From: Clostridia bacterium
GTDB lineage: Bacteria; Bacillota; Clostridia; UMGS1883
DNA: 64,000 nucleotides
Reading direction: 5' to 3'
Assembly: GCA_045615705.1 (NCBI GenBank)
Contig: JAZLFH010000059.1
Span: 1,499 to 65,498 of the forward strand
The position numbers were made by a program, and so were the translations under genes. Shown one piece after another: positions 8,659 to 47,694 of the stretch. The notes under the pieces are model-generated. The model made no database searches and was not told where the DNA came from. It worked only from the letters and a program-made list of their open reading frames with translations. Positions within the stretch are counted from its first letter, which is position 1, and the number at the start of each line of letters is the position of its first letter.

Positions 8659-8698
8659 AAAGGGATGTAAAAACAGTCGTTTTTACATCCCTTTTTTT
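8659..8698. terminator. intrinsic terminator between convergent genes
   Basis: AAAGGGATGTAAAAAC-AGTC-GTTTTTACATCCCTTT is followed by a T-run. Confidence 0.6.
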
Positions 8699-12136: not shown

Positions 12137-12192
12137 TTTTGACCTCTTTTTGTTAAATATTTATATTTTTTGTCATTTTTTTCAAATTTTTG

Positions 12193-12595: not shown

Positions 12596-16191
<3,596 letters not shown>

Positions 16192-19913: not shown

Positions 19914-20390
19914 ATGTTATGTGAAAAATGCGGAATGAATGAGGCAACCGTTAAAGTTACACAAATAATTAACGGGCATAAGACTTTAAAACATCTTTGT
20001 CATGATTGTGCCCAAGCAGATGATGTTTTTAAAGGAATTACGCTTGGTTTTGGGGGAATGTTCCCCGAATTTTCTTCGCTTCACGAATCGGTCGAAGAAA
20101 AGGAATGTCCGCTTTGCAAAATGAAGTTAAGCACATTTTTAAAGACTTCAAAACCCGGTTGCGGTGAGTGTTACAGTGCTTTCGAAAAGGAGATGGCTCC
20201 TCTTTTAAAGAAAATTCATGCTACTAATATCCACTCGGGCAAAGTTGCAAAAAGCGGTGATGAAAAAGTAATTGCAAAAAGAAAAATTGACCTTTTAAAA
20301 GCTAAACTCCAAGATGCCGTAAAAAAGGAACAATACGAAGAAGCCGCCAAACTTCGTGATGAAATTAAGGAAATGGAGGGAGAAGTATGA
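19914..20390 (+). CDS. mcsA: McsA (zinc-finger activator of McsB with a UVR motif)
   Basis: Cys pairs (CEKCG, CHDC, CPLC, CGEC) and a C-terminal UVR-like EQYEEAAKLRDEIKEMEG. Confidence 0.8.
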   Translation: MLCEKCGMNEATVKVTQIINGHKTLKHLCHDCAQADDVFKGITLGFGGMFPEFSSLHESVEEKECPLCKMKLSTFLKTSKPGCGECYSAFEKEMAPLLKKIHATNIHSGKVAKSGDEKVIAKRKIDLLKAKLQDAVKKEQYEEAAKLRDEIKEMEGEV

Positions 20391-21409
20391 CCTGGTATTC
20401 ACAAAAAGGTAACAGCAATGACATCTCACTTTCTACAAGAGTCAGACTTGCAAGAAATCTTAAAGGCTACCCCTTCCCCGTTAAACTTGACCGAAAAAGC
20501 GGAGAAGAAATAATAGAAAAAGTGTGGGCTGCATTTGAAAACTTTCCCGAAAAAGACAGCCTTCGTCTTATAAAAATGGGCGACATCTCCCCTACTGAGA
20601 GAATTGCACTTGCCGAAAGGCACTTAATCAGTATGGAAATGGCAAAAAGCGATTTTCCTTCTGCCGTTATTTTAGACTCAGACGAGGATATCTCCGTAAT
20701 GATAAACGAAGAAGACCATTTGAGAATTCAGGCATTTGCTCCGGGGTTTGATATTGATAAAGCGTACAACATTGCAAATAAACTTGATATATTTCTTTCT
20801 GAAAATCTTGAGTTTTCTTTTCATGAACGGTTTGGATTTTTGACAGCTTGTCCCACAAATGTCGGGACGGGGCTGAGAGCATCTGTTATGCTTCATCTCC
20901 CTGCCCTCACGGCTACAAAAAATTTAAACAATATTCTTTCGTGGTCGGGAAAACTCGGGCTTACCCTGAGAGGGCTTTTCGGAGAAGGTACGCAAGGTGC
21001 CGGAAGAATATATCAATTATCAAATCAAATAACCCTCGGGCCTTCCGAGGAGGACATCTTGACAAGGCTAAAAAGTGCTGCTTCGGAATTAATGAATCAA
21101 GAAAGACTGCTTCAAGCAAAAATGTTTGAAGCAAAAAGAGTTCAAATTACAGATTCATGTATGCGTGCTTACGGAATACTCTCAAACGCCTACACTCTTT
21201 CCAGCAATGAAATGATGACTCTTATTTCCGATGTTCATTTGGGAATAAATTTAGGTATTATAAAAAATGTAACTCAGGAGTCTTTGACAAGTTCAATCTT
21301 TTTAACGATGCCCGCTAACATTGCCGTCAAAACAGGGAATGTTAACTCACCCATTATGCGTGATATAAAAAGGGCAGAATTTATTAAAAACACAATCACA
21401 AAGGAGTGA
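20387..21409 (+). CDS. mcsB: protein-arginine kinase McsB
   Basis: ATP:guanido phosphotransferase fold ([18 protein letters not shown]); it overlaps mcsA and clpC. Confidence 0.85.
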
Positions 21410-23850
21410 TAATTATGCCATTTGAAAACAGATTCAGTGACGGAGCACAAAGAACCCTTCAAATCGCACAGGACTGTGCAAAAGATACCGGGTGTAACTT
21501 CGTTGGAAGTGAGCATCTTCTTCTTTCGATTTTGCGTGAAGGTAGCGGACTTGCTTCAAAATATTTAGAAGAAAACTCCATAACAGAAGATGCTTTAATA
21601 GAAAAAATCACGGAGTACAATGATACTCCGTCAGGCAGCGGTGCTTTTGCGGGATTTACTCCAAGAACTGTCCGGTGCCTTCAAAACAGTGCTATGGAGG
21701 CACATCGCCTTGGAAGTAATATAATAGGAACCGAGCATATTTTATTGGCACTTTTCCGTGAAACGGACAGTGTTGCGTGCAGAATTTTGTCTGAACTCGG
21801 TATGGGACAAGATTCTTATAAAAACTTCTCCGACTACCTTTTAGGAGAAAACAAAGATTCCGGAGGTAAAAGAAAGGACACCAAAACTCCTACGCTTGAT
21901 AAATTCGGCAGGGATTTAACCGAATTTGCAAGAATAGGAAAACTTGACCCGGTAATAGGACGAGAAAACGAAATTGAAAGAGTTATTCAGATTCTTTCAA
22001 GAAGGACAAAAAACAATCCCGTTCTTTTAGGCGAACCCGGTGTAGGTAAAACCGCTGTTGCAGAGGGCCTTGCAGAGCAAATTGTATCGGGAAATGTTCC
22101 TGAACTTTTAAAAAACAAAAGAGTATTCACTCTTGATTTATCATCTATGGTCGCAGGTGCAAAATACCGTGGTGAATTTGAAGAACGCCTCAAAAAAGCG
22201 ATGGATGAAGTAATAAACGCCGGTAATGTAATTCTGTTTATTGACGAAATGCACACTATTATCGGTGCCGGTGCCGCAGAAGGCTCTATTGATGCATCTA
22301 ATATCTTAAAACCTTCCCTTGCCCGTGGCGAACTGCAATTAATAGGTGCAACAACTTTTTCCGAATACAGAAAGTATATTGAAAAGGATTCCGCACTTGA
22401 AAGGCGTTTCCAACCTGTAACTGTCGGAGAACCCACAGTTGATGAAACAATCGAAATTCTTAAAGGAATAAGAGAGAAATATGAGGCTCATCACGGAATT
22501 AAAATTACCGATGAAGCATTAATAAGTGCTTCTAAGTTATCAGCCCGTTATATTACAGACAGGTTCTTGCCCGACAAGGCGATAGACCTTATTGATGAGG
22601 CAGCAAGCCGTGCAAAGTTAAAAACGCTTACAGTTCCGCCTGAAATCAAGGAAATAGAGGAAAAACTCACCAAAACGCTCCACGAAAAGGAAGAAGCAAT
22701 AAAACTTCAAGACTTTGAAAAAGCTGCCAAACTTCGTGATGAAGAAAAAGCACTTAAAGAACAGATTGAAAAAGAACGCACCGAATGGAACAAATCGCAT
22801 TCCGACAGTGTCGGTGAAATAGGTGAAGAAGAAATCGCAGAAATAATTTCAAACTGGACAAAAATCCCCGTCAAAAAACTCGCCGAGGAAGAGTCCGAAA
22901 GACTTCGCCACCTTGAAGATGTGCTTCATTCAAGAGTTGTAGGTCAAGATGAGGCGGTTAAAACCGTTTCCCGTGCAATAAGGCGTGGCAGAGTGGGGCT
23001 TAAAGATCCAAAGCGTCCGGTTGGTTCGTTCATATTTTTAGGACCTACCGGCGTTGGTAAAACCGAACTGTCAAAGGCTCTTGCAGAAGCAATTTTCGGC
23101 AATGAAGATTCAATGATAAGGATTGATATGAGTGAATATATGGAAAAGCACTCCGTATCAAAACTTGTCGGTTCGCCTCCCGGATATGTAGGCTTTGACG
23201 AAGGCGGTCAACTTACCGAAAAAATACGCAAGAAGCCGTACAGTGTAGTCCTGTTTGATGAAATAGAAAAAGCACATCCCGATGTCTTTAACATACTGCT
23301 TCAAATACTTGAAGACGGAATTTTAACAGACTCACAAGGCAGAAGAGTTGATTTTAGAAACACTGTAATCATTATGACATCAAACCTCGGTGCAAGAAAT
23401 ATTGTCGAGCCTAAAAACTTGGGGTTCGGTGATAACAAGGACGCTAAAAAGGCACATGAGGATATAAGAAGAAATGTTATGGACGAACTGAAAAAAGCGT
23501 TCCGCCCCGAGTTTTTAAACAGAATTGACGACATTATTGTTTTCAATCAGTTGACCGAAGACGAAATCAAATCTATTGCCTCGCTTATGCTTAATTCACT
23601 TAAAGACAGATTAATTGCAAACGATATTAATGCAGTATTTGACGACAGTGCAATATCGCTTTTGGCAAAAGAAGGATTTGACCCTGTGTATGGTGCAAGA
23701 CCGCTCAGACGGGCTATTGTTTCTAAGGTCGAGGACTTATTCGCCGAAGAAATGCTTTCGGGAAATGTCAAAAAAGGAGATAATGTAACAGTTGTCGCCG
23801 AGGGTGAAAAAATACTAATAAAAAATGCAGTTAACAAAAAAAGTGATTAA
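21406..23850 (+). CDS. clpC: ATP-dependent Clp protease ATP-binding subunit ClpC
   Basis: Clp N-domain repeats, two AAA+ modules ([18 protein letters not shown]), a UVR linker ([17 protein letters not shown]), and 814 aa. Confidence 0.9.
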
Positions 23851-26867: not shown

Positions 26868-26958
26868 GGAGAGATGGCTGAGTTGGTCTAAGGCGCACGA
26901 CTGGAAATCGTGTAACGGTTAACCCCGTTCAAGGGTTCGAATCCCTTTCTCTCCGCCA
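26868..26958 (+). tRNA. tRNA-Ser (anticodon GGA), CCA encoded
   Basis: GGAGAGA acceptor stem, anticodon stem CACGA/UCGUG with loop CUGGAAA, a long variable arm (AACGG/CCGUU), T-arm GGTTCGAATCC, and a 3' end of UCUCUCC-G-CCA. A TTGTAA-17-TATAAT promoter lies upstream. Confidence 0.85.
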
Positions 26959-27046: not shown

Positions 27047-27414
27047 GGAAGTAAAAAGTAATATGGAAGAAGGAAAAAGTAAGGTAAAAAATCGCAGGCG
27101 ATTTTGTTTTGAATATATGATTTTTCACCAAATTTCAGCATCAATTTCGTATCTGCTCCACCTGTTTTCAAACATTGCATCTAGCACATCATCAATAAAT
27201 CATCAATTTTTAATTTTGATTTCCGTTTGTGAGTAATTGCTTTTGCACTTTTTCACTTCCTTTGTCGATAGTATTTTTTGTAACACACAATACTCCAAAC
27301 CGTTTCATAAATTAAGTGAAAAAATGAATAAAAGCAAAAGGCGATAGATTTTACTCTACCGCCTTTTTTGTTATGTATGGTATGTTTTTCTTTTTACTTA
27401 CGGTGTTGTGATTT

Positions 27415-30400
27415 TTAATCTTCTCCTTTTGCTTTGCAAAGAGGAGTTATATCGGAAAGCGATGACCACCAAAAAGCTTTTACATATCCGCTTTGGGTAA
27501 ATTTGCCTGTCAGGTCATCTGTTTTCGTCAGGTCAAAAGTTTTCACATCAAGTAATTGATTCAAATTTTCATTATCATAAAGTGCAACAATCACAATGCC
27601 CTTGTTTGTATTCTCGCCGTTTGGTGTTACGGTGAAGGTATTCCATGTGGTGTCAAGGGCAAGGCTATCTTTTTCGACGATTTTCACATACGGCATTGTG
27701 CTGTCAAAACTGACACGGTTTTCGTTTTTGTCGTAAACCGCCATATTTTCGCCGATTGTGATTACATCGGCGCCGATGGCTGTTTCGGACACTGAACCCG
27801 TTGCGGTAACTTTGCCGCCGTAAATCGCAACGCCGGTCAAGTCGCCGTTAGTAGTGTTGCCGTGACCGATTCCTTGTGCGGAGAGCAGTCCGGTTGCCGT
27901 GACATCGCCGCCGTAGACTGTCACGCTTCCACCATTGCCGCCGAACATTCCCGTGCCGATGCCTGCACCGTTCGAACTGCTGTTTGCGACTATCTCGCCG
28001 CCGTGAATCGTGATATTGCCGCAGCTTGCGCTCATACCTCCGCCGATGCCGGCAGAGTATGTACCGCCGTTTGCAATAAGCTTACCGGTGCCGCCCTTTT
28101 GCGCATGGACCGTCAGGCTGTTTTCGCCTTCGACCTTGATGCCGCCGACCGTCAGCTCACAGCCGTCCATCAAAATAAGGCTGACATCGCCCGTCACCGT
28201 GACGCTGCTTAAATTTACCGTACCGTCTGCGATGTAAAATCCGCCATTCCATGCGGTTTCATCCGAAAGAACGGTCGCACCTGCGGGAATTTCCAAAAGC
28301 TGCTCTGTGACCTTTTGATTTTGCTCGTCCAGGCTCCGGGCGATATAACAACAGCTCGGATCTTTCGCACCGCAAACGGAGCAGTAGCCATTTACATAAG
28401 TACAGCTTTCGGTTTTGGTCGGTTCGTAACATTCGCCTCCTTGATTGGTATAACAGGTATCACAGAGAAAAGTATGAGTTCCGTTTGTGCCGGCGTCGAT
28501 GATCTTGCCGTACGAATGTATATGTTGTGTCCATTTTGCATAAAGCGTAATATCCTCTGCACAGTTCGCACTGACAGAGGTGACCGGACTGCCCGAACAG
28601 TCAGATTTCTTGAACCAGCCGAGAAAAATATAGTCTGCTTTGACTGCTCTCTTCAACGCTGTCACAGAACCGTAGGTATGTGTTGTCGGATAACCGATTT
28701 CATGTTCACCCGTGAAATCGCATCCGTCTTCATCCTCATCCTCATCCTCATCTTCATCTTCATCCTCGGCTTTGTCCTTGGCTTTATCCTTATAAATTAT
28801 GTTGTAAGCAGCGTTCTTCCAATGTGCGTACAGCGTAAAATCACTCTTCCTGTCGCAGTTTCTTACGCTTTCTCCGCTTGCGTTGTAGTAAGCATTTCCA
28901 AACTTATCATAATAACCCTCGAATGTATAACCGGTCTTTGTCGGAACAGTTATTTCGGGCATCGCATAAGTATAGCGTGCCTCGGCGGCTTCGCTTCCGT
29001 CTCCGCCTCCCTGCATATCAAAGAAGGTAACCGTCACGCTGATATTCGGAGCGTCTGCAAGCTCCAAATAGCCTCCATCGGCGGTTTCGTGCCTTATGTA
29101 TTTACCTTCTGCATCAGAGAAGAAATAATTCGCATCTGCTCCGTTTGTTGTAAATCTGCCGTTGCCGGCTTTTGAAATGCCGATTTGAGCGCCCTGCTTA
29201 AATCCATCGGGGCTATTGCAAACGGTTATGCATTTTGAATCCTGCAAATAGAGATTGTTGTCAGAAGTTCCGTCTTTTGACAAGTTACCGTAAATTTTAG
29301 CTGTTCCGCCGACTGTAAGTTCTCCTCCGTCAGCAACATAAACTCCGCCGCCAAGGTCTGCCGAATTTCCCGTAACAGTGCCGCCTGTCATCGTCAGCTT
29401 GCCTTTGACCAGCACGCCGCCGCCATATAGCTTAGAATCACCTGTGCCTAAGGTCTGACCGGTGCCGCCCGTGATTGTTCCGCACGACGACTGACTGCTG
29501 TCCGTAATTGTCAGATTTGTGCCCTCTTTAACCACGATTGCGCTTCCTTTTGCCTGAGAGAAGTCCATACTGTGTCCGTTGAGGTCAAGAATTACTTTTG
29601 TATGATCTTCCGATGTGTCTACACAGAACGGCTCATCATGGCTGCCGGCTTTGATATCATTCAACAGTTTAATTGTTACAATATACGGAGTACTGTCCAC
29701 CACGCTGACCTCAAGGTCACCGTCGAGCGCCTCACGTGTACACAGTCTGTCCCATGGGCTTGCCGCAATATAGTCAAATAATTTATGCGTGTGATAATAT
29801 GCAACCTCGGTTGCATCATTATGTTTCCATATATTTTCACGGTTTTCCTCAGCGTCTTCACCAATATATGAAGGCCAGTCCGGGTTTTCTCCTATATAGC
29901 TCTCAAGATTTATATTCTTAAGTGTTGATACCGGATTTGAGCCGGCTGCATAGGACTCCACCGGAATTGCGTCCGCAAGCAGCTGCGCTTTGAGAGCAAA
30001 CGCCGCAAACGCCTCACTGCTTGAAATAAACGGCTCTTCTTCACATGCCATACGCTCATCAATAAACGGTGTGAATCTTGTATTTGCCGGACTGATGTCT
30101 CCGGGGTCATAGTTTTCGTTTATGCCCCAGCCGCCTTCGTAATTCATCTGTAATGTGGCATCAAGACCAAGGATATTATACATGACATTATTGATTACTT
30201 TTATATAATCCGTTCCTTTGATTTTTTCGGTAAATGCCCAGTAACCATCATATTTCAATAATTCATGGCCTTCTTTATATTCACTTTTTCGGGTGTACAA
30301 TTTGTTGAAAAATATATCTCTTATTTCCTCTTCACTCGCTTCACGGTCCACATCGTCCGGACAATTTGCAAGGAATTCATCGCTTGGTGAATACAAATTG

Positions 30401-31731
30401 ACAACATTCTTTTTTACATCCTCAAAGCGACCCTTCCAGGTCAAGGTGCTGCGAAAATCCGATTGCCCGAAATTATCATACCAATGCGAAGCCCGCTTTT
30501 GAGCCGGGATATTATTTTCCCAGTAATCATCAACCATTCCGTCATCAACGGCATTTTTGTCGAATGCCTCCGCGGCAATTGATGCATTGAGCATAAAATA
30601 CTTTTCATATTCAAGTCCGAAGTCTTGTATTGCAGAACAAATCAGCATATTGCCGAGTGAATGACCGACCAGATATTTTCTGCCCGGAAGCCGTTCACAT
30701 AAATTTTTAAAATCCTGTGCCGCGGCAAAAGCATTTTCAACATTTGCGTAATAATTCAATGTGAGATTAATAGTACCAAGGAACTTTATCATTGATTCAT
30801 CGCTGTCCCATTCTACTGCCGTAAACATCGAATCCGAGCCGGACTGCCAAAGCCTCTTGTAAAATTCTGACGCTTCTCCTCTCGCTTCATCATGCGTTAC
30901 ATTGTATCCGTGGACAAAGACGAACTGCCTGCCGTCCGAATCCGCATCCTTTCTCGCCGTCGGCTCGTCAGGTACGGATGAATCACCTTGACGAAGATTG
31001 ATTGTGCGGTACATATCCTCAACCTTCGCTACCTTGATAGGCAAATTTAAACTTACCGGATCACGGTCGTCTTTATAACCCGTAAGAACAATATTCCCTT
31101 CACCGAGACCGCTGCCTTCGATCAGTAAAACACCTCTGCCTTCTTGCAAAAAACCATCCGGCAGTTGTGGTTCATCACGGAGAGAAGTGACAGAAGCTTC
31201 ATATACCGGAGTTTCACCATCGAACTCTTTTACATCTATTTTTGTATGAAAATCGCCGGCTTTATCTGCGTTTAGTTTTGTAAACACAACATTTACATTT
31301 GCATCACCTGTGGATTTAAGTTCCCATGTATAATTTTCCCATTCGGGAACCCCGGTCACATCAACCAAAACAGGGAAAAAATCGAGCAGGTCGCAGCGCC
31401 CGTTTACTTTATCGTCATCATAATCCATTTTGTTTCTTTCGTCTGCCGGAGTATCATGTCCGGCAGTATCATGTCCGGCAGTATTTGTATCTCCGGCTGT
31501 TTCGCCGTCACTTGTTCCTTCGGCATCATCGTCATCATTCAGCCAAATGGTAAATACGCCGGTTCCGGATATGGATTTATCATAGTCATATTCGTCAATC
31601 TTGCCATCCCTGTTTAAATCGGGAACCAGTTTCGGCCCCCGTCCGGCCGCAAAGACAGGGATAGTCCCAAGCGGAAGCATTGAGACGATCACAAAAACCG
31701 CAAGTAATAAACTGATAATCTTCTTTTTCAT
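27415..31731 (-). CDS. giant secreted modular surface protein (EF-hand/dockerin-like Ca motif, alpha/beta-hydrolase GHSLG domain, Gly-rich parallel beta-helix repeats, Listeria-Bacteroides (Flg_new) repeats, acidic (D/E)n linker, Cys-rich modules, conserved C-terminal module)
   Basis: The likely start is MKKKIISLLLAVFVIVSMLPLG at 31731, with GGAGGT 9 nt upstream, followed by a signal peptide. It contains DLNRDGKIDEYD, FVFVHGYN...LVGHSLGNMLI, the repeat GGxVTAxG..GAGIGGG, and GYTFEGYYDKFGN. The last 70 aa are near-identical to the paralogue at 32100..36008. Confidence 0.8.
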   Translation of the reverse strand: MKKKIISLLLAVFVIVSMLPLGTIPVFAAGRGPKLVPDLNRDGKIDEYDYDKSISGTGVFTIWLNDDDDAEGTSDGETAGDTNTAGHDTAGHDTPADERNKMDYDDDKVNGRCDLLDFFPVLVDVTGVPEWENYTWELKSTGDANVNVVFTKLNADKAGDFHTKIDVKEFDGETPVYEASVTSLRDEPQLPDGFLQEGRGVLLIEGSGLGEGNIVLTGYKDDRDPVSLNLPIKVAKVEDMYRTINLRQGDSSVPDEPTARKDADSDGRQFVFVHGYNVTHDEARGEASEFYKRLWQSGSDSMFTAVEWDSDESMIKFLGTINLTLNYYANVENAFAAAQDFKNLCERLPGRKYLVGHSLGNMLICSAIQDFGLEYEKYFMLNASIAAEAFDKNAVDDGMVDDYWENNIPAQKRASHWYDNFGQSDFRSTLTWKGRFEDVKKNVVNLYSPSDEFLANCPDDVDREASEEEIRDIFFNKLYTRKSEYKEGHELLKYDGYWAFTEKIKGTDYIKVINNVMYNILGLDATLQMNYEGGWGINENYDPGDISPANTRFTPFIDERMACEEEPFISSSEAFAAFALKAQLLADAIPVESYAAGSNPVSTLKNINLESYIGENPDWPSYIGEDAEENRENIWKHNDATEVAYYHTHKLFDYIAASPWDRLCTREALDGDLEVSVVDSTPYIVTIKLLNDIKAGSHDEPFCVDTSEDHTKVILDLNGHSMDFSQAKGSAIVVKEGTNLTITDSSQSSCGTITGGTGQTLGTGDSKLYGGGVLVKGKLTMTGGTVTGNSADLGGGVYVADGGELTVGGTAKIYGNLSKDGTSDNNLYLQDSKCITVCNSPDGFKQGAQIGISKAGNGRFTTNGADANYFFSDAEGKYIRHETADGGYLELADAPNISVTVTFFDMQGGGDGSEAAEARYTYAMPEITVPTKTGYTFEGYYDKFGNAYYNASGESVRNCDRKSDFTLYAHWKNAAYNIIYKDKAKDKAEDEDEDEDEDEDEDGCDFTGEHEIGYPTTHTYGSVTALKRAVKADYIFLGWFKKSDCSGSPVTSVSANCAEDITLYAKWTQHIHSYGKIIDAGTNGTHTFLCDTCYTNQGGECYEPTKTESCTYVNGYCSVCGAKDPSCCYIARSLDEQNQKVTEQLLEIPAGATVLSDETAWNGGFYIADGTVNLSSVTVTGDVSLILMDGCELTVGGIKVEGENSLTVHAQKGGTGKLIANGGTYSAGIGGGMSASCGNITIHGGEIVANSSSNGAGIGTGMFGGNGGSVTVYGGDVTATGLLSAQGIGHGNTTNGDLTGVAIYGGKVTATGSVSETAIGADVITIGENMAVYDKNENRVSFDSTMPYVKIVEKDSLALDTTWNTFTVTPNGENTNKGIVIVALYDNENLNQLLDVKTFDLTKTDDLTGKFTQSGYVKAFWWSSLSDITPLCKAKGED

Positions 31732-32009
31732 ACTCTTGTACCTCCTGAAATTGCTTTTCATATTCTACTTTACACTATCAATTGCTTCTATTATTGAAAT
31801 TTTTATAAAAATTTAACTGTGTTTTTCTTGTGTATGTAATAAAATGACACAACAAAACCAATTATACATTTTAATTATAGCACTTTTGATTGTGACTTTC
31901 AAGATGCCAAAGCCATTTTCTCTCTTTGCAAGTTTTCCACAAAATTAACAAAATGCTTTGAATTTTATCTTACTAAACTCTCTTATGCAAACTTGTGTCA
32001 AATAAAGAC

Positions 32010-32052
32010 AAAAAAGATAATGGATACTTTTGAGTATTCATTATCTTTTTTT
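32010..32052. terminator. bidirectional intrinsic terminator between the two giant genes
   Basis: aaaaagataatggatacttttgagtattcattatcttttttt. Confidence 0.5.
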
Positions 32053-32099
32053 ATAATATTTAATTTATATTGTGCCTGAATTTTAATCTGCTGTGATTT

Positions 32100-35000
32100 T
32101 TAATCTTCTCCTTTTGCTTTGCAAAGAGGAGTTATATCGGAAAGCGATGACCACCAAAAAGCTTTAACATATCCGCTTTGGGTAAATTTACCTTCCGGCT
32201 TATCTGTTTTCGTAAGGTCAAAAGTTTTCACATCAAGAAGTCTTGTCATATATTCGCTGTCATAAAGTGCAACAATGACAACACCCTTGTTTGTATCCTC
32301 GCCGTTTGGCGTTACCTTGAAGTCATTGCCCGAAATGTCAAGGGTAAGGGAATCCGGCACAAATGTTTTTGTTATCTTTGCAAACCGGTAATCGCTTACG
32401 CTTTTGCCGCTTGGAAGCGGAATAAACTCGTCGGTTTCATTCGCCCTGACCTGAACCGTGCCGTCAATCACGCCGCCCTCGTTAAGTATAACACTTGCAC
32501 CGGTTGCGCCGTCAGAACGGTAGCCTCCTTCATTATCTTTTCCTCCGGCACCGCCGTTGCCGCCGGTCGCATTGACCGAACCTTCATTTATTACAAGGCT
32601 TAAGCATTTTATTCCGGAGCCGCCGTCGCCTCCGGAATGAGCTGTTCCCCAAGAGGCGCCGGCACTAAAACCTTTGCCGCCGACACCGCCGACAGCTGTG
32701 ACGGTCGCATTGTTCACGGTAAGGATTGAAACATCAATTGCGTTGCCGCCTTTAAGTGATTTGCCGTAGCCGCCATTACCGCCTTTTACCGATACCGAAA
32801 CGCCGATGATTGTAAGAGCGGAAACGGTTATCGCATTACCGCCTTCAACCTTCTCCGGCCCGTTCGGACCGTAACAATTCAGCTGACCTGCCTTGCTGCC
32901 TGTACTTTGCGAATGTAGATACAAATGTGCGTCCTCGCCGGAAATAGTGTCTTTTATAAAAATGGGATTTTCATTTGTCTGAATCATAAGTGTGCTTTCG
33001 TCCGTCAAAATCAAATGCACATCACCCGAAACCGACACATTACCCGTTATTCCTACGCCATCCTTTACAACATACCATTTGCCGGCTTCCCATTCGGTCG
33101 GCTTGTGGTTTTCGTCAATCACTTCATAATCTAAACAGACCGATTGTTTTAGTTCCTTGCTTACTTCATCATAGTATAGGTACGGCACGACGGAACTTTC
33201 CGCTACGAGTCGGTAATAGGTGTCGGTGAGGATTTGTGCCCAATATAATCCCCCAACTTGTCTGACAACTTCCTCGTTTGCCCGGTTGTAAACTTTCACA
33301 GTATCTCTTCCGTTATAGTAAATTTCAATACCATTCGGGTCGCTGACCGAAAAAGCCTTTTCCCCGCCCTGCACGGTTACATTGGCGGGGCGAAGGATTC
33401 CGGTGCTGTTACTGAACTTCGACGTTTTTGTCTGAATGCCATATTTACTTCCCGTGACGGAAAGATTACCGCCGGTAACTTCAAGGTGATTTGCCAAAAT
33501 TCCTACTTCACCTTCCGTCGTTACAGTCACATTTGCGTTCTCGCTGATTGTAATTGTATGAAATTTAGCGTAAATGCCGTTATACCCTCCTGTTACGGTT
33601 ACGGTGCCGCCTTTGATAGAAAGGTCGCCGTCGTTTATGATAATAACTTCATGAACATTGGCTACATTATTTACGGTCACGGTACCGCCGGAGACATGCA
33701 TTCCATCGTCTACTATAATAGAATATATGGAGAAGCCTGTCGGAACGACACCGCTCACGGTCAAAGCTCCGTTGCTAATCTCCAGGTGACAACATTTAAT
33801 GAAACCTGCTGTTATGTTTCCGCCGAGGATGGAAATGTCCAATCTCCAGCTGTCAAAAGAATCAACATTCAGGCAGCCCTTGGTGCTCCCGTCCGACTGG
33901 GCATAAACCTTAATATGGCCGCCTTCGCTCGTTATATTTCCGTTTACCGTCAGCGTTTTGCCGTCGCACAGGATCAGGCAGACAGTGCCGGAAAGCGAAA
34001 TGTCTCCGTCTATCGTTATGTTCTCGTTTACCACATACCAGCCGGCGTTTTCTTCATCCGCCCCGCCTGTCCATGTTGTGGTGTCCTGCATCACAGGGGT
34101 ATAGCTCTTGCACTCGGCATAGGCATTACCGGACATCCAATATTTCACCGCAGGCAATGTACCATCTGCAATATGGATTGCTTTATATCCCGACAGAGAA
34201 TTGTATAAATCCTTTTCTTCCGTTACGGGAGAGACAGAAAGCTCTGTGCCGCTTAAATCCTTTACGGTAAATTTTTTGTCCGCATTGGCATAAACCTTAA
34301 CCGAATAAGCAATTACGGCATCTTTGGTGCTTTTGCTGTCGGCAATAATATCGCCGCCGTAAATGGAAATTTTGTTTCTGTAAATACCCCTCGAACCGCC
34401 GCCGAGTGCCATACTGCCGTTGCCGTACGCTTTCACGGTGCCGCCGTATACGGTAATACTGCCGCCGTTGCCTTCATAGCCGTTGCCGATGCCGGCACCT
34501 AGGTTGCCGCCGGTAGCAGTCACCGTGCCACCGTATATCGTTATATCGCCGCAGTCGCGTTCATGACCGCCGCCGATACCGGCTCCGTCATTACCGCCGT
34601 AAGCCGTAACAATACCTCCGTTGATGGTAAGTGTGCCGCTGTCTTCCTTGTCATAACTGCCAATACCTGCCGCACTTGAGCCGCCGTATGCAACGATGCT
34701 GCCGGTATCGTTTTTCTGACCGTAAATTGTCAGAGAATCACTTGCACCGAAAGTACCGCCATCAGTCAATTCTATTGCGGCGTGCACATTCCCGGGCGAA
34801 GGGATTTTCAGCTCGCAATCGTCGCAAAGAACAAGATTTACATCGCCGTTCACAGTGATATGTTTGCCCTCCGGCAGCGTAACGCTTTCCGAAAGAACAT
34901 ACCAGCCGCTTTCAAGTTCTCTTGTGTCCGCCGTGATTTTTTGGGCTGTTTCCGGGATATCTTCCTCCGTGGAAACAACCTGCTTTTTGTCGCTGTCCCA

Positions 35001-36008
35001 GCTCCGGGCGATATATTTGCCCAAGTTGTGTGCACCGCATGCGCATACGCCGTCTTCATATGTATGTGCTTCGGGAGTGCCAAATTCCTCACACCCCGTG
35101 CATTTGTATGCGTGCGTGCCGTCGCCGTTGTTCACACAGTCCCCGGTGAAATTGTGGCTGTGCGGAGGATAGATAATGGATACATAGTGGTATCTGTATT
35201 TTCTGTAATCTTCGACTGTAACGGGCTTACTGTCATCAGCTGTGTCACCCGCTCGGATCTCCAGACCGTTCGCCACGGTAAATTCGCCCTCACCTATGTG
35301 ATTGCCTGCGCCGATGCCCGAGTTTCTGGCCGATGTAGCCGTGACGGTACCGCCATACACGGTCACTTTGCTGCCGCTTCCCCAATGACCGCCGCCGATG
35401 CCTGCACCGTATGTGGATGTAGCCACGATGGTGCCGCCGTACACGGTAACTGCACCGGCACTGATGAAGTCATCATTGTAGCCGTCGTCGCCGATGCCTG
35501 CACCGTATTTGGATGCAGCCACGATGGTGCCGCCGAATATGTTCACTGTGCCGGTGTTGGTGTTGTGGTCGCCTGCTCCGATGGCGGCAGAATACTCGTT
35601 AGGATAACTGTCGCAGTGTGCTTCGATTACGCCTATATTCTTTTGCTGACCGTAAATATTCAGCGTATAACCTTCGGCAACCTCTATACCGGCTGCCGCA
35701 GTAAGCGTAAAACCATCAAGCAGAACGATATTGGTTGGGTTGTTGGTTGTGCCTTTTACCACGATCCGGTTCCCGTTTGTAACGGTTTTGCGGACAACAT
35801 ACCAGCCGCCGGAAAGTTCGGTGGTGTCCGCCGTGATTTCTCCGGCGTATGTAGGAATATCCTTTGCCGTGGAAACGACCTGCTTTTTTGTTTCGTCCCA
35901 GCTCCGGGCGATGTATTTACCGCCCGTTTCCGCCGAAACCGTTACCGGCAAAAGCGATACCACCATCGCCAGCACAATTATTATGCTTAGTAATTTTTTT
36001 GTTTTCAT
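32100..36008 (-). CDS. giant secreted Gly-rich beta-helix surface protein, paralogue of 27415..31731
   Basis: Signal peptide MKTKKLLSIIIVLAMVVSLLPVTVSA. The (K/C)YIARSWD...GWYVV...LVL.DG module is repeated (aa 31 and 330). It has AGIGGG/GAGIG beta-helix repeats and a Cys-rich insert. Its C-terminal 70 aa and 3' flank match the first giant gene at the nucleotide level. Confidence 0.8.
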   Translation of the reverse strand: MKTKKLLSIIIVLAMVVSLLPVTVSAETGGKYIARSWDETKKQVVSTAKDIPTYAGEITADTTELSGGWYVVRKTVTNGNRIVVKGTTNNPTNIVLLDGFTLTAAAGIEVAEGYTLNIYGQQKNIGVIEAHCDSYPNEYSAAIGAGDHNTNTGTVNIFGGTIVAASKYGAGIGDDGYNDDFISAGAVTVYGGTIVATSTYGAGIGGGHWGSGSKVTVYGGTVTATSARNSGIGAGNHIGEGEFTVANGLEIRAGDTADDSKPVTVEDYRKYRYHYVSIIYPPHSHNFTGDCVNNGDGTHAYKCTGCEEFGTPEAHTYEDGVCACGAHNLGKYIARSWDSDKKQVVSTEEDIPETAQKITADTRELESGWYVLSESVTLPEGKHITVNGDVNLVLCDDCELKIPSPGNVHAAIELTDGGTFGASDSLTIYGQKNDTGSIVAYGGSSAAGIGSYDKEDSGTLTINGGIVTAYGGNDGAGIGGGHERDCGDITIYGGTVTATGGNLGAGIGNGYEGNGGSITVYGGTVKAYGNGSMALGGGSRGIYRNKISIYGGDIIADSKSTKDAVIAYSVKVYANADKKFTVKDLSGTELSVSPVTEEKDLYNSLSGYKAIHIADGTLPAVKYWMSGNAYAECKSYTPVMQDTTTWTGGADEENAGWYVVNENITIDGDISLSGTVCLILCDGKTLTVNGNITSEGGHIKVYAQSDGSTKGCLNVDSFDSWRLDISILGGNITAGFIKCCHLEISNGALTVSGVVPTGFSIYSIIVDDGMHVSGGTVTVNNVANVHEVIIINDGDLSIKGGTVTVTGGYNGIYAKFHTITISENANVTVTTEGEVGILANHLEVTGGNLSVTGSKYGIQTKTSKFSNSTGILRPANVTVQGGEKAFSVSDPNGIEIYYNGRDTVKVYNRANEEVVRQVGGLYWAQILTDTYYRLVAESSVVPYLYYDEVSKELKQSVCLDYEVIDENHKPTEWEAGKWYVVKDGVGITGNVSVSGDVHLILTDESTLMIQTNENPIFIKDTISGEDAHLYLHSQSTGSKAGQLNCYGPNGPEKVEGGNAITVSALTIIGVSVSVKGGNGGYGKSLKGGNAIDVSILTVNNATVTAVGGVGGKGFSAGASWGTAHSGGDGGSGIKCLSLVINEGSVNATGGNGGAGGKDNEGGYRSDGATGASVILNEGGVIDGTVQVRANETDEFIPLPSGKSVSDYRFAKITKTFVPDSLTLDISGNDFKVTPNGEDTNKGVVIVALYDSEYMTRLLDVKTFDLTKTDKPEGKFTQSGYVKAFWWSSLSDITPLCKAKGED

Positions 36009-36169
36009 AATGAAAACCTCACTTTCCCTAAATTGCTTCTATGTTTTTGAAATTTTTATGCAAATTTAACTGTGTTTTTCTTGTATATATAATCAAATGA
36101 CACAACAAACCTAACTATTCATCTTAATTATAGCACTTTAAAAGAAAATTTTCAAGATGCCAAAGCCGT

Positions 36170-36290
36170 TTTCTCTCTTTTTTACAGGAAAATTTTTTCT
36201 TGTACAAAGTTTTCCTTAAAAGTGGCGAAAGCCTTCTGTTTTATTAAACAAAAGGCTTTGAATTTTATCTTATTATACGAAAAAACTCGA
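36170..36290 (-). promoter_or_regulatory. conserved roughly 110-nt leader/promoter cassette (copy A), shared upstream element of three consecutive minus-strand genes
   Basis: Near-identical copies sit at 37598..37720 (upstream of the decarboxylase gene) and partially at 31900..31985 (upstream of the first giant gene). Each copy contains the hairpin AAAGCCTT...AAGGCTTT, the 8-bp palindrome TTGTACAA, and a -10-like TAAAAT at its edge. Confidence 0.55.
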
Positions 36291-36330: not shown

Positions 36331-37476
36331 TCAACGATTTAAGTCTTCGATAAACTCGTCAATGATATTTTTCTTCACATGCTGCATCACGACTATATGG
36401 GAAAGTTCCCCGCCGTATTCCGGGAGAAAGCCGTTTGCAAGTGAATATTTCTTCCGTATCCACTCCGGCGGACGCTTGAAAAACACCGTGTTGCTATACG
36501 GCATATGCCATGCGGGATAACCGATTTCGTCAAATTTTTCCTGAAGATATCTCGTGTTTTCGAGCATGGACTCGGCTTCTTTTTCAAAAGCATCATATCC
36601 CATATGATGTAAAATCCAATAAAATTTAAGCGGTGCAACAGCACTTCTTGAACAGCTGATCAGCGGCATATCATTATTGAGATACTCCACCTTTGCTGCC
36701 CTTTGTGCCGCCAAAACATCTTTTCGGCTCAAAAACAAGCCACACGGTTCATCAATGCCGAAAAACTTATGACCGCTGATGGCAATCGAATCGTATCCCT
36801 GCTTTTCCATGCTTACAATATCTTTATATTCCGTAAATGGGAAATAACCGCCGAACAAAGCGGCATCAAGATGCTTATAAACGCCGACCGGTTTTACTTC
36901 TTCCAATACTTTTCCGATTGAGGCTTGGTCATCTGTGGCTCCCATAAATGTGGACCCGATGGCAAAAACGATCAATGCCGGTCTTGTCGGGTCAAGGTTT
37001 TCTCTGAATGAATCCGGATCCATGCGTCCCAGATTATCATAATCAATCATTCGGTTTTCAAGATTCTGGACATCACACAAACGGGATGAAGAATAATGCG
37101 CTTCTTTGGAAATATAGACAATCGGAAGCATTCCGGTTTCTTTTTGAAGTTTCTTTGCACCGAAATAAATTCCGTGCATATTTCCGTCTGTTCCGCTGTT
37201 AGTAACAAAGCCCCATTCCTCGCCTTTCGGGATACCGTAGAGCGGTGCAAAAGTCTGAATGACTTCTCTTTCGATCAAAGTGGCGCTCAACAGGTACTGT
37301 TCATCGTCAAACGGATTTCCTACATTGTTAGTCGCAATATCACACAGCCCGGTTTTGGCGTACCATTCACCAAACCCTGCCATATTAGGATATTGACAAA
37401 CGGGATACCCAATACTGTAATCTACATTTTTATAGAATTCTTTTACAAGATTAATCAGGCGTTCTTCAACTTCCAT
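36331..37476 (-). CDS. PLP-dependent group II amino-acid decarboxylase, histidine-decarboxylase-like (HdcA-type fold)
   Basis: The 381-aa protein has GYPVCQYP, WGFVTNSGTDGNMHG, the PLP-lysine motif SGHKFFGIDEPCG and HxD. These align with Gram-negative PLP histidine decarboxylases. A GGAGG ribosome-binding site is present. Confidence 0.7.
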   Translation of the reverse strand: MEVEERLINLVKEFYKNVDYSIGYPVCQYPNMAGFGEWYAKTGLCDIATNNVGNPFDDEQYLLSATLIEREVIQTFAPLYGIPKGEEWGFVTNSGTDGNMHGIYFGAKKLQKETGMLPIVYISKEAHYSSSRLCDVQNLENRMIDYDNLGRMDPDSFRENLDPTRPALIVFAIGSTFMGATDDQASIGKVLEEVKPVGVYKHLDAALFGGYFPFTEYKDIVSMEKQGYDSIAISGHKFFGIDEPCGLFLSRKDVLAAQRAAKVEYLNNDMPLISCSRSAVAPLKFYWILHHMGYDAFEKEAESMLENTRYLQEKFDEIGYPAWHMPYSNTVFFKRPPEWIRKKYSLANGFLPEYGGELSHIVVMQHVKKNIIDEFIEDLNR

Positions 37477-37597
37477 TTTCGCTTCCTCCGTTATTTCAGT
37501 TGTTTTTTTATTCAGAGTTTTCGTCTTTTTGTGTATAACTTAATAAGGAATTATAGCATATTTTTCCTTTGGTTACAAGGTTTTTGTCATATTTTTG

Positions 37598-37720
37598 GGT
37601 TTTCACCGTTTTCTCTCTTTTTTACAGGATTTTTTCTTGTACAAAGTTTTTCCGTAAAAGTGGCGAAAGCCTTCTGTTTTATTAAACAAAAGGCTTTAAA
37701 TTTTATCTTACCAAACTTTC
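37598..37720 (-). promoter_or_regulatory. conserved leader/promoter cassette (copy B) upstream of the decarboxylase gene
   Basis: About 95% identical to 36170..36290. Its edge carries TTTACA-18-TAAAAT on the minus strand. Confidence 0.5.
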
Positions 37721-37881: not shown

Positions 37882-39252
37882 ATGATGAAAATGAGGATTG
37901 TTAAATCTGTTCCGAAAGAAAATATATATTTTAAAAGTGAAGAAACAGCAAAAGGAAACGCCAAAAGCGACACGGAACTTAATGTAGTTAACATTTTTGA
38001 TGATGTGAAGTATCAGTCCGTTCTCGGTTTCGGTGGTGCTTTTACCGAATCTTCCGCTTATAACTATTCGCTTATGGATGATGATACAAAAAAGGCATTT
38101 TTGACCGCATACTTTGACGAGGAAAACGGAATCGGCTATAATTTCGGAAGAACTCACATTAATTCGTGCGACTTCTCGCTTGATTTGTACTCGTACATAG
38201 ATGAAGGTGATACGGAACTTAAAACATTTTCTGTTGACCGAGATAAAAAGTACATACTTCCGTTTTTGAAAGATTGTTTGGCTTATACAAAGCAGGAAAT
38301 GATACTTTTTTCCTCGCCGTGGAGTCCTCCCGCATTTATGAAGGAAAACAATTCCCGAATAAAAGGCGGAAAACTTTTAGAAAAGTTTTATGACACTTGG
38401 GCAGAATTTATTGTAAAATTCATTCTCGCCTACAAAAACGAGGGAATTAACATTTCCGCAATTTCCGTCCAGAACGAACCTAAGGCAATTCAGCCTTGGG
38501 AAAGTTGCTTTTACAGTGCCGAAGACGAAAAGAAATTTATTAAAAAGAGTTTGATTCCTGCACTTGACAGAGCAAATCTTGATACAAAAATTATCATTTG
38601 GGATCACAACAAAGAGCGTGTTTACGACCGCTCCCGCACAATCTTTTCGGACGAAGAAGTTAAAAACAGAGTTTGGGCAGTCGGTTATCACTGGTACACA
38701 GGCGACCACTTTGAAGGATTAAGGCTTGTTCACGAGCAATTTAACAAACCTCTCATCTGTACGGAATTTTGCAGCACTATGGAGTATGACTTGCTTGAAC
38801 TTGCCGAGCGTTACGGCACCGATATGTGCGAAAACTTCAACAATTTCCAAACCGCTTCTTGTGATTGGAATTTACTTCTTGACGAGTTGGGCGGTCCTTA
38901 TCACAACAGAATTTCTGCCGATATTTCAAAAGAAGCCGAACTCTTGGACCCCAAAAACGGCGGTTGCTACGCACCCATTTTATACGATAAAACTGCTAAA
39001 AAGATGGAACTTACACCTATTTACTACTATATAGGTCATTTTTCAAAATTTGTTAAGCGTGGTGCTGTAAGGATTGCCACAACGAAGTTTACTTCAAAGA
39101 TTAATACCTGTGCCTTTGTAAATCCAAACGGCGAAATCGTTACGGTTTTAATTAACCCTCAAAACGAAGATACCAATGTCGTGCTTCGCCATAACGACAT
39201 TTGCACAGAGGTTTGTTTAAAAGCACATTCAATCGCAACCGTAATAGACTGA
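37882..39252 (+). CDS. glycoside hydrolase family 30 (glucosylceramidase/xylanase-like O-glycosyl hydrolase)
   Basis: A GH30 TIM-barrel plus beta-sandwich pattern (GFGGAFTESSAYN, SPWSPPAFMK, NEP acid/base, CTEFC nucleophile region), 456 aa. Confidence 0.75.
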   Translation: MMKMRIVKSVPKENIYFKSEETAKGNAKSDTELNVVNIFDDVKYQSVLGFGGAFTESSAYNYSLMDDDTKKAFLTAYFDEENGIGYNFGRTHINSCDFSLDLYSYIDEGDTELKTFSVDRDKKYILPFLKDCLAYTKQEMILFSSPWSPPAFMKENNSRIKGGKLLEKFYDTWAEFIVKFILAYKNEGINISAISVQNEPKAIQPWESCFYSAEDEKKFIKKSLIPALDRANLDTKIIIWDHNKERVYDRSRTIFSDEEVKNRVWAVGYHWYTGDHFEGLRLVHEQFNKPLICTEFCSTMEYDLLELAERYGTDMCENFNNFQTASCDWNLLLDELGGPYHNRISADISKEAELLDPKNGGCYAPILYDKTAKKMELTPIYYYIGHFSKFVKRGAVRIATTKFTSKINTCAFVNPNGEIVTVLINPQNEDTNVVLRHNDICTEVCLKAHSIATVID

Positions 39253-45747: not shown

Positions 45748-45980
45748 AATTAGTGAGAATGAACCCTGTAATTTCAAGTCGCACTCCAAAATCACCTCCT
45801 CGCCCCATTGATACGCAAAAGACATTTAACTCACTTTTGGATTCATTTAAAGAAGACGACTGGATACTGATTGCAATAATTTTAGTGTTGTTTTTTGAGG
45901 GCACAGACGATTACATTATGCTTGCGGTACTCGGTTATTTATTTGTAATGGGATTAGTTCAAAAAGACGATGCTAAATAG
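45744..45980 (+). CDS. hypothetical small protein with a C-terminal TM helix
   Basis: A 78-aa ORF overlapping the previous stop (ATGA). It ends in the hydrophobic segment WILIAIILVLFFEG...LGYLFVMGLV. Confidence 0.3.
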   Translation: MKLVRMNPVISSRTPKSPPRPIDTQKTFNSLLDSFKEDDWILIAIILVLFFEGTDDYIMLAVLGYLFVMGLVQKDDAK

Positions 45981-47694
45981 CATCGTCTTTTACTGTAAAT
46001 CTTGTTGTAAATTCAGTTGTTCCTTTTTTAATCTCTATAATTACCGAAGGAATTTTTGTTTTGGGGTGCAAAAGGTTTGTGTTGGGTGATGCAGTTATCA
46101 AAAACGGCTTTCCTCCCTCAACTTTACAATAAGAAAAGTTGTTTCTTACTTCAATACAGTTATCCCCATTCGTTGCTGATATTTTTTCGTCTTTCAGTGC
46201 AAACCCGCAATCATACGCCTTGCAGTCATACTCCGATGTAATCTTATGTTTTCTTTCATGCCCCCAAGGTTTGGGAGTTATTTTTGTTTCGACATCAATT
46301 CCTTTAAATGGTGTCCACTTAATAACTATGCTGTTATTATCTGTTTTAGATTCGATAATGCGTCTGTTTTGCATTATAATTCCGTCAATATCAAACACCA
46401 ACATACTGTCGGGCGATGCTTCTTGAATATCGTAGTTTGAAAATGTTACATTAAATCCGAAGAGGGTTGAATAGCAGAATTTATAGTATTTGGGAATCAT
46501 CTGCCCTAAATCTCCGAGTGCAAAAGGTGTCGGATAAGCAAAAACTTGCCCATCTATTCTTTGAGTAATCATTTCCATGTGTTTTATGTATTTTTGCTCG
46601 TCAAGATTAGGCATTTTTTCTGCTTTCACCTTGAAAAACTCGTGATTTTCGTCAAGTGCCAAAAATGCAAATGTTTTTAACGCCCAATACGGTGAACCCG
46701 GAGCGTTATAATGCTCCGACATTATCAAGTTTTGATACTTATAACCTACCGTCAAAATATCAGCATTATCAAATATATCATCATTTTGAAACCAATACTT
46801 TAAGTTCCGGACAATAATTCCCTTCATTACCGAAACAGGATACGGCTTTACATCTGCCAATACGCACATACTCCAAAATGCACATTGGGCAAATCTGTAA
46901 GTCAGTGAGCGACCGTAAGGAATCGCTTCTCCGTTGTCGGAAAACCAATATATAAAGTCTTTCCCGAAGATTTCCGCTCTTTCTTTAAACTTTTTAGAAT
47001 TTACCGGGTCGTCATTTTCCATAACCTTTGCATACAAAAGCGAATAAAAATGCATGGCAAACGCTATGTAGTAGTCTTTTCTTCCGCCTTTCCCGTCCTC
47101 GTACCATCCGTTTCCGAGATACCACGAATCAATAAGTTTTAAATTTTCATCAATTTTGGTTTGGTCATACTTTCTTCCCAATTTTTTTAATGTAATATTG
47201 GTAATTATGTTAAAAAACAACCAATTTATCTTTGGTACTTGCTTTTCGTTGATTTGATACAGCCAAGATGCCACATTATCCTTTTCTTCATCCGAAAGCG
47301 GTTCCCAAAGGATTTTCGGTGCAAGGAGTAATCCGTAACAAATTCCCGCCATTTCGACAAACCTTTGGTCAAAATCATGGCAATCGCCCCAATATTCGTT
47401 ATTCTTTTTATCGGTACCCGAAGCCAATCCCTTTACATACATTTTCGAAAATCCGCCATCTTCACAGTTGCACTTCCAAAGCGGTGCAAGTCCCCATAGC
47501 GGTCTTCCCCACGCTTCAAGTTGTGATGCTTCTGTATCATAGTGTGCGGAAAAATCACCAAGGTCCACTCTTGCGTAGTTATCTGAAAACTTTTCTTTTA
47601 AAGGCTCCAAGAGATACAGCAATAAATCACAAAAATCTTTTTTACTCTCTAATTTCATAAAATTTTCTCTGTTAATCCGACTCATTATAATCAC
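45973..47694 (-). CDS. DUF2264-domain protein (carbohydrate-utilisation-associated, glycoside-hydrolase-like)
   Basis: The 573-aa protein contains WYLGNGWYEDG and the W-rich pattern of DUF2264. The start is uncertain (47694 or 47658). Confidence 0.55.
   Translation of the reverse strand: MIIMSRINRENFMKLESKKDFCDLLLYLLEPLKEKFSDNYARVDLGDFSAHYDTEASQLEAWGRPLWGLAPLWKCNCEDGGFSKMYVKGLASGTDKKNNEYWGDCHDFDQRFVEMAGICYGLLLAPKILWEPLSDEEKDNVASWLYQINEKQVPKINWLFFNIITNITLKKLGRKYDQTKIDENLKLIDSWYLGNGWYEDGKGGRKDYYIAFAMHFYSLLYAKVMENDDPVNSKKFKERAEIFGKDFIYWFSDNGEAIPYGRSLTYRFAQCAFWSMCVLADVKPYPVSVMKGIIVRNLKYWFQNDDIFDNADILTVGYKYQNLIMSEHYNAPGSPYWALKTFAFLALDENHEFFKVKAEKMPNLDEQKYIKHMEMITQRIDGQVFAYPTPFALGDLGQMIPKYYKFCYSTLFGFNVTFSNYDIQEASPDSMLVFDIDGIIMQNRRIIESKTDNNSIVIKWTPFKGIDVETKITPKPWGHERKHKITSEYDCKAYDCGFALKDEKISATNGDNCIEVRNNFSYCKVEGGKPFLITASPNTNLLHPKTKIPSVIIEIKKGTTEFTTRFTVKDDAI

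Follow-up and report, generated by a model that had tools for sequence, protein, structure and literature searches.

A predicted group II PLP-dependent decarboxylase from an uncharacterised clade of the histidine/serine decarboxylase-like superfamily in a Clostridia bacterium

The decarboxylase gene and its product

The gene described here, on the minus strand at positions 36331–37476 of a 64,000-nucleotide stretch of contig JAZLFH010000059.1 from a Clostridia bacterium (the window, meaning this whole stretch), encodes a 381-residue protein that an earlier note had read as a pyridoxal phosphate (PLP)-dependent histidine decarboxylase (HDC) within a surface-protein locus. The open reading frame (ORF) is present and intact, and the two motifs quoted for it are both found in the translation (WGFVTNSGTDGNMHG at residues 88–102 and SGHKFFG at residues 234–240). 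The product, intact and strongly conserved, is predicted to be a group II PLP decarboxylase of the HDC/serine decarboxylase (SDC)-like superfamily (PRK02769). It matches the Pfam family PF00282 at 64.9 bits (cutoff 27, E 7e-18) and its best NCBIfam hit is NF002748 (E 2e-78), so the ORF cannot be attributed to chance. These two matches, together with the fold, bear out the family-level assignment of the earlier note (group II PLP decarboxylase, HDC-like). Its remark that the enzyme is not of the pyruvoyl HdcA type holds as well, the protein being of PLP fold-type I throughout and no pyruvoyl HdcA appearing among the PDB sequence matches.

The closest PDB entries by sequence are the plant serine and alanine decarboxylases SerDC and AlaDC (8jg7, E 4e-51; 8jik and 8jij, E 9e-48), followed by the HDC of Photobacterium phosphoreum (PpHDC, 7erv/7eru) with an E value of about 1e-41 (phmmer best 8e-42). 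An AlphaFold2 model, calculated from an alignment of 52 sequences, has a predicted local distance difference test (pLDDT) value of 94.9 and a predicted template modelling (pTM) score of 0.93. In Foldseek comparisons the template modelling (TM) scores of the model are 0.89 for AlaDC 8jik (root-mean-square deviation 1.9 Å), 0.87 for HDC 7erv, 0.85 for SerDC 8jg7 and about 0.82 for methionine decarboxylase. The modelled protein has the three-domain fold of the solved group II decarboxylases.

The PLP-binding and catalytic residues were mapped from those listed for the plant enzymes AtSerDC and CsAlaDC (PMC11407765). The set comprises G95/T96 and S276* (phosphate), H127 (ring stacking), T176 (O3'), D204 (pyridine N1), A206, H236, K237 (Schiff base) and Y265 (proton donor on the catalytic loop). 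The residues S234-G-H236-K237 form the S-x-H-K motif of the Schiff-base lysine, all signature residues of group II are present, and the full catalytic set is invariant in the close homologs (120/120). By this mapping the decarboxylase is catalytically complete. The ratio of nonsynonymous to synonymous substitution rates (dN/dS), calculated against four relatives, is 0.05–0.075, which identifies a functional gene; purifying selection on it is certainly very strong.

A repeated module stands on either side of the gene (Table 1). Its two copies are 80% identical and have in common an exact core of 42 nt (36218–36259 and 37656–37697; 0 expected by chance), and the module hairpin is stable, with a 14-bp stem and a z score of about −3 to −4. 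Of the repeated leader cassette that the earlier note had placed on both flanks, the repeat is real, while the term leader is not established, because the decarboxylase has its best promoter-like site between the upstream copy and the coding sequence. Transcription of the gene appears to be monocistronic and to start from a promoter of its own. As the downstream hairpin starts 72 nt past the stop codon, it is a plausible intrinsic terminator, and the decarboxylase transcript probably ends there. Sequences preceding the decarboxylase in the window and in 21 related loci were searched for a riboswitch or T-box that might point to the substrate, and none was found. The module itself was also considered as a dispersed repeat or a known RNA, and this was rejected: it gave no Rfam hit, is absent from related loci and had 0 matches in two metagenome scans. 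On the simplest reading it is an intergenic element private to this lineage and duplicated locally; a putative shared role in binding a regulator is possible.

Table 1. Coordinates of the decarboxylase gene and of the features around it in the window.
Feature	Position	Strand	Class, basis or remark
Decarboxylase coding sequence, 381 aa, ATG start	36331–37476	minus	group II (fold-type I) PLP-dependent, 'D-E-P' clade
Shine-Dalgarno-like GGAGG, 8 nt 5' of the decarboxylase ATG	37485–37489	minus	read from sequence
Best promoter-like site of the decarboxylase, TTGTAA-17-TG-TATAAT	37578–37550	minus	consensus match, 10/12
Upstream module copy: hairpin 37666–37697, then CTTTGTACAAG (holds palindrome TTGTACAA), then AAAGAGAGAAAACGG	37609–37710	minus	divergent spacer shared with GH30
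Downstream module copy, hairpin 36228–36259	36171–36272	minus	repeat and folding
Promoter-like site of the next gene, TTGAAA-17-TATAAT, just downstream of the module copy	36155–36127	minus	consensus match
Secreted 1302-aa beta-helix-repeat protein	32100–36008	minus	context
Secreted 1448-aa protein (DUF900 alpha/beta-hydrolase domain, Listeria-Bacteroides repeats, beta-helix)	27415–31761	minus	context
GH30, divergently transcribed	37882–39252	plus	PF02055, E 1.5e-50
tRNA-Ser(GGA) beside the surface-protein/decarboxylase block	26868–26958	plus	context

Position in the family and the substrate pocket

An exhaustive HMMER search returned 2021 homologs at E≤1e-3 and 193 at E≤1e-30. The query, 13 close homologs, the full-length representatives at 50% identity and three structural references were combined in one MAFFT alignment. 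In the resulting tree (100 bootstraps) the query clade has a bootstrap value of 100, the D-E-P clade, which adds P0121–P0124, P0126, P0128, P0134 and P0136, one of 91, and a wider clade one of 96. The HDC clade, made up of PpHDC and a Salinivibrio protein, has 100% support and is distant from the query clade; a sister relationship of the query clade with HDC or with plant SDC appeared in none of the 100 replicates. The query is 29% identical to PpHDC, 34–36% to the plant enzymes and 51% to the nearest 50%-identity representative. Its score against NF002748 is 263.5 bits, below the curated equivalog cutoff of 305, and the clade relatives score 261–277, compared with 605 for the Salinivibrio HDC. 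Since a plant-SDC-type protein (P0166) passes the same cutoff at 461 bits, NF002748 is not specific for histidine and may mislabel proteins of the SDC type.

By these comparisons the decarboxylase sits in a well-supported, uncharacterised clade and has neither HDC nor SDC as an orthologue. The histidine-decarboxylase reading of the earlier note, and with it histamine production, is not supported, given the bootstrap result, the score below the cutoff and the absence of the residues typical of the HDC clade. In NCBI the clade proteins are labelled only 'aminotransferase class V-fold PLP-dependent enzyme', and the labels of clade relatives are generic, save for one automatic 'histidine decarboxylase' on the distant member P0134. 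No fusion partner was recognised: the N-terminal extension of the D-E-P member P0122 contains no Pfam domain, and ACT-domain fusions occur solely in other subfamilies.

Relatives of the gene were collected in a scan of 185,579 species genomes, which gave 46 loci. The close ones (72–94% identity) come from metagenome-assembled genomes (MAGs) labelled Acutalibacteraceae, Christensenellaceae, Oscillospiraceae, Lachnospiraceae, Anaerovoracaceae and others, mostly from the guts of horses and other herbivores, and the deeper ones (about 44–50%) from gut Opitutales, Planctomycetes and Victivallales.

In the plant enzymes the residue that follows a Tyr-Pro pair (YP-x) sets specificity, as found by mutagenesis for Tyr111 of AtSerDC (Ser) and Phe106 of CsAlaDC (Ala) (PMC11407765). 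Two more determinants are the residue before G-T-(E/D)-G-N (Cys174 in SDC, Gly168 in AlaDC) and the residue six positions after the Schiff-base lysine (Lys+6; Met321 in SDC, Thr315 in AlaDC) (PMC13522723). At these three positions, in the same order, the query has V26, S94 and E243, PpHDC has E, G and I, SDC has Y, C and M, and AlaDC has F, G and T. The active-site segments of the query clade read S-G-T-D-G-N and I-G-S-T-F-M-G. The clade has G-N-P-F in place of G-D-P-F in the others and G-D-W in HDC, and the query reads CSRSAV where HDC and SDC read GSRNGH. The residues of the HDC clade, Y-P-E and C-G-D-W, are replaced in the query by Y-P-V and V-G-N-P-F; their value as markers of histidine binding comes from conservation within that clade, not from a published test.

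The clearest peculiarity of the pocket is the acidic pair D242-E243, which stands at a pocket-lining position where nearly all other family members have Pro followed by a hydrophobic residue, D242 taking the place of the almost universal Pro. E243 aligns with Met321 of CsSDC, which is placed near the catalytic pocket (PMC13522723). In the 120 homologs C27, D97, F177, M178, D242 and C275 are all invariant (120/120), E243 and S94 are each retained in 118, and position 26 is V or I in 116. None of His, Ser and Ala is favoured as substrate by these predicted pocket residues, and the earlier note was justified in its caution that the substrate cannot be read from sequence alone: family members 57% identical can differ in substrate, and plant 'HDC' annotations proved to belong to SDCs (PMC4177580).

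In respect to the enzymes of known structure, PpHDC resembles the query in fold, in the PLP and catalytic residues and in length (374 vs 381 aa), and it differs by its low identity, at all three determinants, at the G-N-P-F and CSRSAV segments and by the antiporter/hisS cluster, which the query is without. AtSerDC (8jg7) and CsAlaDC (8jik, 8jij) are the best matches in sequence and, with TM scores of 0.85–0.89, in structure, and the query conserves all their catalytic residues. Against these plant enzymes the query differs by its V/S/E pocket and by the lack of an N-terminal extension and of the C-terminal Cys3-His zinc finger described for plant SDC and AlaDC (PMC11407765). The archaeal MfnA (TIGR03812; 3f9t, 6jy1) and the Streptomyces L-methionine decarboxylase (MetDC, 7cif) have the group II fold in common with the query (TM 0.75–0.85), and MfnA is its second NCBIfam match (121 bits vs a cutoff of 299). 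Both are only about 20% identical to it and far under the family cutoffs, and MetDC is, at 557 aa, larger, with extra domains.

Proposed activity and alternative explanations

The product of the gene is probably a dimeric and catalytically competent cytoplasmic enzyme, a group II PLP L-amino-acid alpha-decarboxylase of a separate, uncharacterised clade, orthologous to neither HDC nor SDC. The steps of its reaction are proposed from the conserved residues and the fold. The substrate would take the place of K237 in the Schiff base, and CO2 would depart while the PLP ring, which is stacked on H127 and held at N1 by D204, stabilises the electron pair. The C-alpha would be protonated by Y265, located on the catalytic loop of the partner subunit, and a primary amine would be released.

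Neither the window nor any of 24 related loci has hisS or an antiporter, APC-type or other, beside the decarboxylase, in line with the earlier note, which had seen no antiporter adjacent to the gene; a Pfam census of the 115 ORFs within 2.5 kb in those 24 loci likewise contained no antiporter family. In a survey of histamine clusters, PLP-type hdcA occurred with an adiC-type antiporter, sometimes with hisRS, in Proteobacteria only (PMC8465708). As an antiporter partner is absent in every genome examined, the enzyme would more likely meet a need for an amine inside the cell, biosynthetic or housekeeping, than take part in acid resistance or amine export.

For the substrate, our single best guess, although a doubtful one, would be an amino acid whose side chain is cationic (for example ornithine, lysine or 2,4-diaminobutyrate), decarboxylated to a diamine. 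It is suggested by the acidic pair D242-E243 near the pocket together with a small aliphatic Val at the usual determinant. A hydrophobic or aromatic substrate seems unlikely. A more novel reading, which falls somewhat short of probable, is that of an unrecognised, gut-restricted D-E-P subfamily whose rebuilt pocket (V26, S94, D242-E243, C275) would accept a substrate new to the HDC/SDC-like family; a diamino acid converted to a diamine would be one example. The exceptional conservation would then reflect an important role of the amine in these anaerobes, possibly spread by old transfers.

Several points weigh against the main explanation, that of an L-amino-acid decarboxylase of a separate clade with, at a guess, a cationic substrate. 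The tree was calculated by neighbour-joining from a single alignment, not by maximum likelihood. The promoter and the terminator are consensus and folding predictions only, and the guess of a cationic substrate would stand on one sequence argument. The YP-x residue is not constant across the wider D-E-P clade (G, V, F and L occur), so the substrates may differ or the position may matter less. Literature searches found no biochemical data for any member of the clade. Finally, compared with HDC the acidic residue and the aliphatic one have exchanged places between YP-x and Lys+6 (E/I to V/E), and this swap could in principle preserve an imidazole-binding pocket.

This last point underlies the proposal of a genuine HDC that forms histamine in a rearranged pocket, with the imidazole-contacting Glu moved from YP-x to Lys+6 (E243) and one acidic and one aliphatic residue retained. 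The superfamily and the size are those of bacterial HDC, NF002748 is the top NCBIfam match, the TM score to PpHDC is 0.87 and the distant member P0134 bears the HDC label, albeit an automatic one. We consider such an activity quite unlikely, because the NF002748 score is under the equivalog cutoff of a model that also passes an SDC-type sequence, the query is sister to HDC in none of the 100 bootstraps and has neither YP-E nor the Trp of G-D-W, the antiporter or hisS partner seen beside PLP-type hdcA (PMC8465708) is missing, and the plant 'HDC' annotations that proved to be SDCs, with the differing substrates of 57%-identical members, caution against the name (PMC4177580). A decarboxylase of small neutral amino acids (Ser to ethanolamine, Ala to ethylamine, or Thr/2-aminobutyrate) would agree with plant SerDC and AlaDC being the best sequence and structure matches, and with the variability of YP-x in plant SDC-like proteins (Y, T, F, V, A, I, L; PMC11407765), which includes the Val of the query. 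This alternative is also improbable: the Y111V variant of AtSerDC lost Ser and Ala activity alike (PMC11407765), all three validated determinants differ from those of SDC and AlaDC, the plant C-terminal zinc finger is missing, residues 320–381 containing no Cys, and the query clade is never sister to the SDC clade. An aldehyde synthase, performing decarboxylation with oxidative deamination, or an inactive relic is very improbable. SDC-like enzymes did gain the former activity in legumes (PMC4177580), but the conversion in aromatic decarboxylases goes with a Tyr-to-Phe change in the loop (Y350F, as cited in PMC13522723), the Tyr-to-Phe mutants of AtSerDC and CsAlaDC lose amine formation (PMC11407765) and Y265 is kept here in 120/120 homologs; a relic is excluded by the dN/dS of about 0.05 and the intact catalytic set.

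The remaining alternative concerns inheritance and takes the decarboxylase as horizontally acquired cargo, the flanking repeats marking its insertion into the surface-protein block or its co-regulation with that block. It draws on the direct repeats with their exact 42-nt core on both sides of the gene, on the tRNA genes directly upstream in three relatives and the tRNA-Ser bordering the block in the window, and on the comparison with the copy in a MAG labelled Christensenellaceae (L003). The decarboxylase is 87% identical to that copy, above several Acutalibacteraceae copies, compared with 44% for AroE/K, 50% for AroQ and 40% for AroA, and what the genomes have in common here is confined to its ORF. 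The nonsynonymous rate (dN) is 0.07 for the decarboxylase vs 0.42–0.63 for the aro genes, the synonymous rate (dS) 1.37 vs 1.9 or more, or saturated, and the identity at four-fold sites 44% vs 27–38% (about 25% expected by chance). The MAG taxonomy labels and possible paralogy of the neighbours weaken the identity comparison, however, and synonymous sites near saturation mean that any transfer is old. No integrase, transposase or att repeat was found, and the G+C content at third codon positions (GC3) of the gene follows each host, from 29% to 76%, matching the host flanks across 25 loci. Neither the related loci nor metagenome contigs contain the repeat, hence it does not travel with the gene. 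Taken as a whole, we regard the cargo explanation as unlikely. A recent horizontal transfer is ruled out by the near-saturated four-fold sites and the ameliorated GC3; that an old transfer adds to the conservation is possible but unproven. An island integrated at the tRNA was rejected as well, since both an att-like repeat of the tRNA-Ser 3' end and an integrase are absent. The window as a whole is core chromosome (EF-Tu, EF-G, ClpC, McsB), and its surface-protein/decarboxylase block is free of integrases and transposases.

The gene thus belongs to a known class of enzymes but to an orphan subfamily, one whose pocket is distinctive; a special link to surface proteins or to mobility is not supported. 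Motif-based or automatic reading would label it 'histidine decarboxylase' and its hosts as histamine producers, and this label is unsafe. Knowledge of the clade's substrate would give a function to thousands of metagenomic proteins of Clostridia and Verrucomicrobia from herbivore and human guts, and would define a new specificity in a family where one or two residues switch the substrate.

Neighbouring genes in the window and in related loci

The neighbours named by the earlier note, giant surface-protein genes on one side and GH30 on the other, were confirmed (Table 1). The two giant secreted proteins are local paralogues, as shown by their last ~100 codons (82% nucleotide identity, 27364–27663 vs 32049–32348) and by the promoter/5' untranslated region that their genes have in common (85% identity, 31791–31927 vs 36044–36180). 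The G+C content of the two surface genes is 46–50% vs ~38% for the window, being raised in these genes and not in the decarboxylase. No functional link was found between the decarboxylase and the protein encoded at 32100–36008.

Among 24 related loci, secreted beta-helix genes lie downstream of the decarboxylase only in L001, the closest relative (94% identical), so the linkage to surface proteins is a lineage-specific synteny and not a conserved association. The earlier suggestion of an accessory gene in a mobile-looking surface-protein locus is not supported, given the unrelated contexts of the gene in these loci and the missing integrase, transposase and att repeat. Clustering of the ORFs in the 46 loci revealed no conserved neighbour, the one recurrent cluster consisting of generic ABC ATPases, and no nucleotide similarity extends more than ~30 nt beyond the ORF, even in comparison with the 89%-identical L001. 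A GNAT acetyltransferase was considered as a partner; it is adjacent to the decarboxylase in two loci (L047, L048), but 4 of the 115 neighbours make an unconvincing case for so common a family. The L001 contig carries an array of secreted-protein genes in which a ribosome-binding site and signal-peptide start is repeated 4–6 times (2466–2563, 3680–3724, 6338–6435, 7243–7340 and 8663–8760), parallel to the duplicated gene starts of the window.

In three relatives a tRNA gene lies 82–553 nt upstream of the decarboxylase in equal orientation (Leu-CAG at 7836–7919 of L014, Pro-GGG at 7809–7884 of L016 and Tyr-GTA at 7364–7448 of L047). Such a position is found more often than chance would predict and may be due to read-through expression or to old hot spots of insertion. 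L014 also has two cobalamin riboswitches on the minus strand (12007–12184 and 12819–12991), 3–4 kb downstream of the decarboxylase and attached to other genes.

The ~44%-identical relatives from Opitutales, and one from Syntrophobacterales, have metal-related genes directly downstream of the decarboxylase (9044–11646 in L024, L025 and L028; 9243–12138 in L030 and L036; 9222–10142 in L027). Three arrangements occur there: a PNPOx-like gene that overlaps the stop codon and precedes a TonB-dependent receptor, a DtxR/FeoA repressor ahead of FeoB, and a cation-efflux protein. An iron- or metal-linked context is confined to these ~44% relatives and was not transferred to the Clostridia clade.

The other genes noted in the window are ordinary chromosomal ones: a GGGtGRT-family gene at 17524–18522 on the minus strand (PF14057, E 5e-199), a McsB-like guanido kinase followed by ClpC at 20387–23850 on the plus strand, and a DUF2264 gene at 45973–47694 on the minus strand.

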